Positions 11,677 to 12,540 of a stretch of DNA of 21,239 nt are shown in pieces. Made by a program: the position numbers and the translations under genes. The notes under the pieces were generated by a model. It was not told the origin of the DNA. It made no database searches and saw nothing but the letters and a program-made list of their open reading frames with translations. Each line of letters opens with the position of its first letter. The first letter of the stretch is position 1. Source of the stretch: a virus; the IMG/VR virus record IMGVR_UViG_3300031601_000047, one strand, 5' to 3'.

Positions 11677-11752
11677 TTGTTGATATTTTAAAATTATTTT
11701 AATTCATTTAGCAAATGTAAGAATATTATCCAATATAAAAAATTAAAAGCAT

Positions 11753-11790
11753 AAAAAAACCCTGAAGATTTTGAAATCATCAGGGTTTAA
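11753..11790. terminator. bidirectional intrinsic terminator (A7-ccctga…tcaggg-ttt)
   Basis: 6-bp GC-containing stem flanked by an A-run and a T-run. Confidence 0.45.
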
Positions 11791-11990
11791 ATCTCGTGGT
11801 GAGAGTAATGATTACTCACAATTCATGGACACTCTCTTCACATTATTCATCAACTATCTTAACTAATTGCGCCATCAGTCTCAACGATAGAGAGGATTGG
11901 TTACCTCCAACGGAATACAGCCATCATATCTAGTTTGATCGATTTGTTCCGACCTTACGAGGCTCAGGGTTGTACAACCCTGGCTTTTTT
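11791..11990 (+). ncRNA. candidate structured non-coding RNA (identity unknown)
   Basis: GC-richer, ORF-free and rich in stems, for example gtgag-agtaat-g-attact-cac. It ends at a strong plus-strand terminator. Confidence 0.25.
11963..11990 (+). terminator. plus-strand intrinsic terminator (cagggttgtacaaccctg + cttttttt)
   Basis: 18-nt perfect palindrome followed by a T6 run. No plus-strand ORF lies upstream of it. Confidence 0.55.
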
Positions 11991-12492
11991 AGGATTTATG
12001 TGGAAGTGCTTGTTAAACCTTAATTAACCACTTTTCAGTAATTAATTAAGTGCCTTATGGACTAGCTATCCATTATTCAGCCACACTTGAGTTTTAGTTT
12101 CTTGAAGAGTTTTCACTAAGTATTTTATTTCTACTCCGAAGAATATTAATAAAAAAATGTTAAAACAGAATACATAAAGTTAACATCCATTGTTTCTTTT
12201 AAGTTGCTGTAAGTATTCTTTATTCAACATTACCAATAAGGTTTTCAATCAAATACTTTCTTTAACTTGTTAGAAATTTTAGAAAAAACATCCCTTTCAC
12301 AAAAGAAACACTCCTACGTGAGAAGTGAAAAATGTGTTGAGGATGTTCTCACACTTTTTGTTTGGTTTAACAAAACTTAGTGAGTTATATCTTCAAAGTT
12401 TTTTCTTTATAATTTTAAAGAACGTTACACTTTTTGAAGTATTATTTCGTGAAGTGAAGTGTAAAAGAGTATAGTTCCAGTTAGGTTAAAAG

Positions 12493-12535
12493 TTTAAAAA
12501 AATTTCAAAAAAATTTAAAGTTTTTTAAACTCATT
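12493..12535. terminator. AT-rich palindromic hairpin (gtttaaaaaa…ttttttaaac) just downstream of the stop of 12541..13035(-)
   Basis: 10-bp perfect stem. It lacks a clean T-run on the minus strand. Confidence 0.3.
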
Positions 12536-12540
12536 TATTT

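Follow-up and report, generated by a model that had tools for sequence, protein, structure and literature searches.

Here we report that a gene-free block at positions 11677–12540 of a viral DNA stretch of 21,239 nucleotides (nt) (IMG/VR record IMGVR_UViG_3300031601_000047; the whole stretch is called the window below) is, with high confidence, a structured RNA gene read from the minus strand. We lean towards regarding it as an independently transcribed, highly structured noncoding RNA (ncRNA) gene of a probable huge phage, whose product would act in trans. The RNA of about 700 nt is uncatalogued, and its fold has strong covariation support from just six sequences. A preliminary description of the window had listed the block as a candidate structured RNA; covariation supports that part of the proposal, whereas the strand and the transcript model given there were wrong. 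To our knowledge, large, intricately folded ncRNAs are rare, and each class whose function has been solved is a ribozyme, a guide RNA or a self-assembling particle.

Covariation and strand of the fold

Homologous loci were taken from contigs carrying the closest relatives of a nearby major vault protein (MVP) gene and from one DNA-pattern scan of Joint Genome Institute (JGI) metagenomes, which gave L011 and L012. Gene-free gaps of 815–865 nt aligning to the gap in the window were found on five more metagenomic contigs (L001, L004, L011, L012 and L015), and in all six loci the element was co-oriented with its flanking genes and with the MVP gene, corresponding to the minus strand of the window. 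Compared with shuffled sequences, the fold of 11745–12100 scored z = −4.7 on the minus strand and −2.7 on the plus strand, and the minus-strand value together with conservation in five independent contigs makes chance alone an unlikely explanation for the block.

RNAalifold applied to the six-sequence alignment of the 3′ part predicted 99 pairs in 15 helices, terminator included, with compensatory double changes at 35 pairs and at least one compensatory pair in 10 of the 15 helices. Standard pairing held at 95.4% of pair positions, versus 37–45% when the partners were slid by 1–3 columns, and none of 500 column shuffles reached the observed values on any measure. Related sequences can outdo shuffles without any structure, which limits what the shuffle test can say; here such a kinship artefact is made less likely by the slid controls and by how many distinct pair types occur.

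The same structure fixed the strand. It contains 61 G-U pairs, and standard pairing fell to only 86% when the opposite strand was read; G-U pairs at columns 12–38, 85–269, 90–264 and 156–170 of alignment A10 were kept in five or six sequences. Because these conserved G-U pairs become A-C mismatches on the plus strand, the RNA is read from the minus strand, and the plus-strand transcript of about 200 nt suggested in the preliminary description gives way to one minus-strand RNA of about 700 nt.

The most conserved part spans 12085–11750, with 89% identity across five loci in the central 165 nt. The 3′ core has a 5′ junction like that of manA, a long hairpin capped by a GAAA-type loop and a central domain whose length is fixed (179–182 nt in all six sequences), and a conserved palindromic GCGC stands in a hairpin loop of the RNA. 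On the minus strand, helix 8 follows the junction UAAAAAAGCC, which is nearly invariant: L001 and L012 each carry a single substitution. This helix had been described as a plus-strand terminator (cagggttgtacaaccctg plus T6, 11963–11990); the site is on the terminator scan list, but it is an internal helix of the core, and the supposed T6 is the conserved single-stranded A6 junction of the minus strand. The bidirectional terminator said to open the block at 11753–11790 actually marks the 3′ terminus of the minus-strand RNA, where a stem runs into U7, and the hairpin described near 11800 is the 3′ hairpin of the core.

Other parts of the preliminary description concerned coding potential and composition. 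As stated there, the block has no open reading frame (ORF) of at least 60 amino acids (aa) on either strand, the longest being 45 and 49 aa, both on the plus strand; it is bounded by the stop of a 164-aa gene (12541) and the start of a 142-aa gene (11676). Recoding TGA or TAG opened no ORF, because TAA dominates the stops in every frame (10–18 TAA codons per frame). The six-locus alignment showed no conserved reading frame: 32 of its 38 gaps were not multiples of three, and most insertions or deletions (indels) were 1–2 nt. In a window of about 24% GC whose minus strand carries almost all genes, the reported GC shift was confirmed (0.32–0.34 at 11601–12200 against about 0.21–0.25 in the flanks), but composition alone is not distinctive, because the MVP-like gene and 6600–7200 are equally GC-rich. 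Hairpins near 11800, at 11963–11985 and at 11753–11790 are all present, whereas the gtgagaag...ttctcac stem placed at 12318–12360 is not conserved and is broken in L012; a stem adjoining it, CACUUCU-CACGU-AGGAGUG, covaries. The gaagtg motif said to recur forms no significant repeat family. Alignment of homologous regions, one of the checks proposed at the time, yielded RNAalifold covariation and gene-free gaps in the relatives.

Searches beyond these loci returned little. Blastn of the block against 50,697 phage records gave no match, an IMG/VR search via the flanking small proteins gave no relatives, and pattern scans of the core (three patterns in IMG/VR, two in GTDB genomes) gave no match. 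A covariance model of the central core (R1) matched only the six loci, with no match in the more distant MVP loci L002, L003, L005–L010, L013, L014 and L016 or in the phage L017. Rfam at gathering thresholds and ARAGORN found no RNA family, tRNA or tmRNA in the whole window, and within 11500–12700 there was no Rfam match to GOLLD, ROOL, OLE, HEARO, raiA, RNase P, 6S, group I–II introns or known ribozymes at E values up to 10; the tRNA-like, 6S-like, ribozyme and intron candidates put forward earlier thus correspond to nothing known to Rfam or ARAGORN. A literature search found nothing on the large RNA or on the hairpin family described below.

Domains, hairpin family and limits of the transcript

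Upstream of the core, two long-range helices close a 5′ domain: H1 pairs 12398–12390 with 12108–12101, H2 pairs 12384–12375 with 12121–12113, and together they enclose about 270 nt. Both emerged from the repeat and duplex analysis only. They occur in the minimum free energy (MFE) folds of the window, L011 and L001 and, by duplex prediction, in L012, where compensatory changes turn UCACUAAGU/ACUUAGUGA into UCACUAUGU/AUAUAGUGA and GAAGA/UCUUC into GAAGU/ACUUC; L015 and L004 have shifted variants of the long-range helices. Sequence conservation is lower upstream of the core than within it, and the spacer between the hairpin of element A and the core is free in length (39–101 nt).

Element A is a hairpin of about 80 nt that resembles the Class I RNAs of Dictyostelium. 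Its inner stem, AGAAUAC/GUAUUCU, pairs 12219–12213 with 12173–12167 and encloses the loop motif UUACAGCAA, giving the core pattern AGAAUAC-UUACAGCAA...GUAUUCUG; five of the six loci share inner stem and loop motif exactly, and L011 reads UCACAGCAA.

Hairpins of this form occur in many other phages. The exact pattern AGAATACTNACAGCA-N20-50-GTATTCT was found in 45 IMG/VR viral contigs (L022–L066), and 33 of these 45 motif loci contain tRNA or tmRNA genes. A relaxed pattern, in which any perfectly pairing 7-mer stands 2 nt before ACAGCA, gave 104 instances in 377 kb compared with 4–11 in ten block-shuffled controls. The general form is AG-NNNN-C, 2 nt, ACAGCA(A), a 12–70-nt AU-rich loop and G-NNNN-CU(G). 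Stems covary across the phage instances while their ends stay fixed as AG...CU, with variants such as AGGATAC/GTATCCT, AGAATGC/GCATTCT, AGGTGGC/GCCACCT, AGTGCAC/GTGCACT and AGATTAC/GTAATCT. A tRNA gene follows on the same strand in 59 instances, of which 31 end 5–17 nt before the tRNA 5′ end, most commonly 6–7 nt; other instances stand 10–30 nt before a ribosome-binding site and ATG, and yet others form tandem arrays (seven copies in L027 and five in L061, a giant-virus metagenome-assembled genome). Rfam at the gathering threshold gave no match in 16 phage loci carrying the motif. The family is apparently widespread and uncatalogued in phages and, as element A belongs to it, the large RNA carries a module that other phages put directly before stable RNA genes. 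For questions of phage tRNA biogenesis and of where Class I RNAs come from, the family may prove more broadly interesting than this one locus.

For the limits of the transcript, we infer a start at about 12463, just downstream of the box AAACTTTT-N14-TATACT. In the form AAACTTTT-N12-15-TATA this box lies where the gap begins in each of the six loci, and it recurs about 100 nt before the RNA-ligase gene, the first gene of the ligase–MVP block (window 16894–16918; L001 3790; L011 4221; L013 1964). In L004 the gene upstream of the RNA sits on the opposite strand, so the RNA needs a promoter of its own. At the other end, a GC-containing hairpin (ΔG −13 to −20 kcal/mol across loci) runs directly into a U-run on the transcribed minus strand, as in an intrinsic terminator, and starts about 10 nt after P1 in all loci (Table 1).

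Table 1 Features of the RNA locus and its neighbours (window coordinates)
Feature	Position	Strand	Basis and remarks
Predicted full transcript, about 710 nt	11750–12463	minus	5′ end predicted from the promoter-like box and 3′ end from the terminator
Promoter-like box, AAACTTTT-N14-TATA(CT)	12470–12495	minus	Kept upstream of the RNA in all six loci; putative function
5′ domain closed by two long-range helices	12101–12398	minus	RNAduplex and MFE folds
Element A, Class-I-like hairpin, about 80 nt	12156–12231	minus	Outer stem AAUGUUGAA/UUUUAACAUU
3′ core, 14 helices closed by P1 (12085–12082 with 11798–11795)	11795–12085	minus	RNAalifold, six sequences
Helix 8 of the core (GCCAGGGUUGUACAACCCUGAGC)	11963–11985	minus	Conserved; L015 and L011 show a compensatory change and a varied loop
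3′ hairpin, 5-bp stem and 11-nt loop UAAUCAUUACU	11799–11819	minus	Stem identical in 6/6; abuts the 3′ strand of P1
Intrinsic terminator (helix 15), 14-bp stem and U7	11750–11788	minus	6/6 loci; 7 of 14 pairs compensatory
MVP homologue, 804 aa	13385–15799	minus	Pfam MVP_shoulder 3e-27, Vault_3 2.5e-8; PDB major vault protein 7.5e-18
Four tandem paralogues, 142/145/147/128 aa	10018–11676	minus	Directly downstream of the terminator

Mode of action and genomic setting

A stable trans-acting RNA appears best supported because of the size and two domains of the molecule, its own promoter-like box, its strong terminator and the stable-RNA context of the hairpin family; the RNA is also larger and more complex than typical riboswitch aptamers. 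Transcription would begin at about 12463, just downstream of the box also placed before the RNA-ligase/MVP block, and end at the terminator 11788–11750, producing one two-domain RNA of about 640–710 nt with the 5′ domain at 12398–12101 and the 290-nt core at 12085–11795. Such an RNA might act as a stable fold, either as a protein-binding scaffold or as a self-assembling or catalytic RNA, and its organisation would resemble that of "stable RNA" units elsewhere in phages, where hairpins of this family stand directly before tRNA and tmRNA genes.

Several observations weigh against this assignment. Both transcript ends are inferred from sequence features, and matches to the promoter box in the window do not significantly exceed chance (two against 0.38 expected, with 7 of 100 shuffles reaching two). 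The interior of the 5′ domain is poorly supported, since RNAalifold on a MAFFT alignment of the 5′ half found no net covariation. The six representatives come from one narrow clade of shallow phylogenetic depth (MVP proteins 71–89% identical), and several helices are invariant across the six sequences, hence uninformative. Finally, the RNA always lies directly upstream of co-directional genes, with the terminator 75–110 nt before them.

Because of these downstream genes, the intervening terminator and the junction module shared with manA, a cis-acting leader or riboswitch-like attenuator is the main alternative, though we consider it rather unlikely. In such a model the manA-related core would respond to a ligand or protein and thereby regulate how often transcription reads through 11788–11750 into the paralogue array. 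The manA motif (RF01745; Weinberg et al. 2010, PMC2864571) is an orphan riboswitch candidate of T4-like cyanophages and marine bacteria, and it was the best or second-best Rfam match of the core in four of the five homologues tested (E 5.5e-4 to 3.8e-6); the bit scores (window 24.6, L001 25.8, L015 27.4, L012 31.3), however, stay well under the gathering score of 55.2, L004 had no match beyond a 22-nt fragment of 9.9 bits, and the reciprocal model search was not significant. The short distance from P1 to the terminator would suit an attenuator, as would the presence of the paralogue family after the RNA in the window, in L004 (three copies, 10261–11479), in L012 (one copy, 36–476) and, as a weak match, in L015 (BLASTP and hidden Markov model searches), but the downstream gene in L001 is unrelated and L017, a distant phage, has the paralogue without the RNA. 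In five of the six loci, CAGGGUU of helix 8 offers a pairing partner for AACCCUG, the 5′ arm of the terminator; this pairing beats shuffled arms by about 1 standard deviation in four loci and by 3.4 in L015, and it does not occur in L004. The terminator itself is the stronger of the two in four of five loci, the exception being L015 (−15.8 versus −13.3 kcal/mol). An antiterminator search of the six loci thus found no conserved alternative pairing clearly better than shuffled arms, and a conserved RNA of about 640–710 nt in two domains is far above known aptamer size.

The other explanations fared worse. Short plus-strand transcription, with one or several RNAs of about 200 nt that stop at the 11963–11990 hairpin and T6, would account for the listing of that site in the consensus terminator scan and for the plus-strand fold score, but the loss of standard pairing on that strand, the nesting of the hairpin in the longer-range covarying helices 5–7, the common orientation of the element and the minus-strand genes in every locus, and the position of both the U7 terminator and the promoter-like box on the minus strand make this very unlikely. 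We put just as little weight on a DNA element, whether a replication origin or a packaging (pac/cos) site, as the preliminary description had also suggested: the block is intergenic and compositionally anomalous with many inverted repeats, yet its conserved part lacks iterons and tandem repeats (only A/T low-complexity repeats occur, at 12488–12549), cumulative GC skew falls on both sides with no inflection or sign change, and the compensatory changes, with G-U tolerated on one strand, indicate that selection acts on RNA rather than on duplex DNA. That the block is a decayed protein-coding gene or a non-functional spacer is the least credible explanation; the window does hold a decayed gene elsewhere, the RNA ligase, but the core keeps its 89% identity while neighbouring proteins are 32–71% identical, and the free spacer length, the lack of a conserved frame and the predominance of 1–2-nt indels do not fit a former gene.

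The genomic setting of the RNA is marked by the MVP homologue, which lies 0.85 kb upstream of it in the window. In five of the six loci the RNA is found 0–1.5 kb downstream of the MVP gene, the L012 contig being too short to tell, whereas MVP-bearing relatives at 76% and 65–68% identity (L002, L005–L010, L016) showed no RNA within 4.5–10 kb downstream of MVP. Relatives of this protein number in the thousands, are about 800 aa long and occur on metagenomic contigs of up to 531 kb, with 52%-identical copies in the huge phages LR756500 (462 kb) and LR756501/3 (735 kb). Because of the contigs and phages that carry these relatives, the window probably derives from the genome of a huge (jumbo or mega) bacteriophage.

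Downstream of the RNA, the paralogues share two N-terminal hydrophobic segments, which are probably membrane-spanning, and a C-terminal motif, F(D/N)KKxDFDNISDTTTF...N(M/I)YG; they had no Pfam or PHROG assignment, and their copy number differs between related phages. Between the RNA terminator and the next gene stands a TA(C/T)nTTTG box (window 11712–11719, minus strand; also in L001, L011 and L015) that resembles the Bacteroidota −7 promoter element. We draw no host inference from it because the TAnnTTTG motif is not enriched in the window (46 occurrences against 45.8 expected).

The RNA-ligase gene of the window (15924–16865, minus strand) is decayed. Its EKLDG catalytic motif is out of frame between a 2-nt and a 1-nt deletion relative to L013, it has two in-frame TGA codons, and its N-terminal ~43 codons are degraded; intact genes of 321–340 aa are present in L001, L004, L013 and L015. 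The lesion may reflect a pseudogene or an assembly error, and programmed recoding is unlikely. A perfect tandem heptamer, TTTTAAG (5.6 copies, 13280–13318), lies between the MVP-gene terminator (13360–13335) and the next small gene, and a promoter-like match at 13306–13279 overlaps it. Elsewhere on the minus strand, 8299–8865, 9398–10021, 6718–7167 and 20241–20561 encode two HD-domain phosphohydrolases, a gamma-glutamyl cyclotransferase-like protein and a NADAR-domain protein, and related loci also encode DUF4326, Thg1, CYTH and PTH2 proteins. This gene content suggests a theme of RNA and nucleotide repair and modification around the RNA and MVP genes.

Comparison with known RNAs

We compared the core with four real cyanophage manA RNAs (from P-SSM3, P-SSM2, P-RSM4 and P-HM1). 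Both kinds of RNA are phage-encoded and form a P1-closed multi-helix junction in which the 5′ strand of P1 leads straight into GUGACUGAAUAA-hairpin-UAAGGU, 12 nt of which are identical in P-SSM3, P-SSM2 and P-RSM4 and one base off in P-HM1. The manA 5′ module, GUGaCUGAAUAA-hairpin-UAAgG, was found in the core with high posterior probability, and its helices 2 and 3 covary. In both RNAs a hairpin of 5 bp and an 11-nt loop comes last before the 3′ strand of P1 (UUGUGAGUAAUCAUUACUCUCACC in the large RNA, UUGUUGGUAUACAGGAAUCCAACC in manA); the hairpin at 11819–11799 aligns to manA model positions 161–185 and is invariant in the six sequences, so it offers no covariation. In contrast, the central stems of manA (model positions ~63–160, GGUGGUG element) are replaced in the large RNA by an unrelated domain of about 180 nt: cmscan skips them and inserts 160–185 nt, and the inserted domain has its own conserved fold (helices 5–13). 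Also unlike manA, the large RNA has an extra 300-nt 5′ domain and a built-in terminator. Searching the four manA loci (L018–L021) with a model of the periphery of the large RNA (R2) gave nothing significant, the sole hit being the 3′ hairpin at 7.9–8.5 bits (E ~1). By these comparisons the RNA has a manA-like junction module without belonging to the manA family. In P-HM1 (L018 1501–1683) and P-RSM4 (L021 1501–1687), manA directly follows the major capsid protein gene, gp23, and is itself closely preceded by a TGnTATAAT-like box. The large RNA likewise follows the gene of a shell-forming protein (MVP), a parallel with gp23–manA that may be coincidence.

For element A, the sole matching Rfam family was RF01414, that of the Dictyostelium Class I RNAs, at 25.6–29.3 bits in the five homologues tested and 21.6–24.3 bits in the unrelated phage contig L027, all below the gathering score of 41.5. 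Ten of the 11 motif bases (CUUACAGCAA) of CCUUACAGCAA are present, and the stem GAAUAC/GUAUUC is followed by UG. Class I RNAs and element A thus have in common a terminal stem, (C)UUACAGCAA right after the 5′ arm, a variable AU-rich loop and a 3′ arm followed by UG. They differ in that the window hairpin is embedded in the long-range helices of a larger RNA, whereas a Class I RNA is a stand-alone transcript of 42–65 nt; in other phages the hairpin, which keeps the Class I architecture and a 9–10-nt signature, is multicopy and 40–90 nt long. Class I RNAs, moreover, have their own upstream promoter element (DUSE) and are restricted to dictyostelids, a description that does not fit element A, whose phage carriers have tRNA and tmRNA genes. 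Homology and convergence cannot be told apart here, as these data fit both.

The large RNA can also be set beside GOLLD, ROOL, OLE, HEARO and raiA, which likewise extend over several hundred nt with many conserved helices and without an associated ORF or known function. GOLLD and ROOL genes are often near tRNA genes. With these two the RNA has in common a phage association and a link to tRNA-rich regions, here via the hairpin family, whereas its fold differs from those of the ornate RNAs and its known distribution, six contigs, is far narrower. It matches no catalogued family and, judged by size and predicted fold, is one of the large phage-encoded structured RNAs without known function. In the RNA-only multimers of PMC12286853, self-association proceeds through kissing loops, and we speculate that the GCGC loop could mediate the same here.

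The position of the RNA gene next to an MVP homologue and near an RNA-ligase gene echoes vault and Y RNA systems, in which MVP accompanies vault RNA or, in bacteria, Rsr, Y RNA and RtcB share a locus. Vault RNAs measure 88–140 nt, and the large RNA, at about 700 nt, is about five times longer; Rfam found no Vault or Y_RNA match in the window. TROVE is the vault-RNA-binding domain of TEP1 and Ro, and none of the neighbouring proteins scanned had a TROVE domain or resembled TEP1 or PARP. It is attractive, though weakly supported, to imagine the RNA as the nucleic-acid partner of the phage MVP homologue in a vault-like ribonucleoprotein, with the Class-I-like hairpin as a protein-binding or processing handle that tRNA and tmRNA units of many other phages would share; we hold this, or an RNA-only multimer built through the GCGC loop like ROOL and GOLLD, to be improbable. 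A preprint reporting phage MVPs (10.1101/2023.11.10.566534) does not discuss a phage-encoded RNA. By its adjacency to MVP, the locus nevertheless turns the comparison into a testable question, namely whether the "vaults" of prokaryotic viruses carry RNA as do those in which MVP is accompanied by vault RNA.

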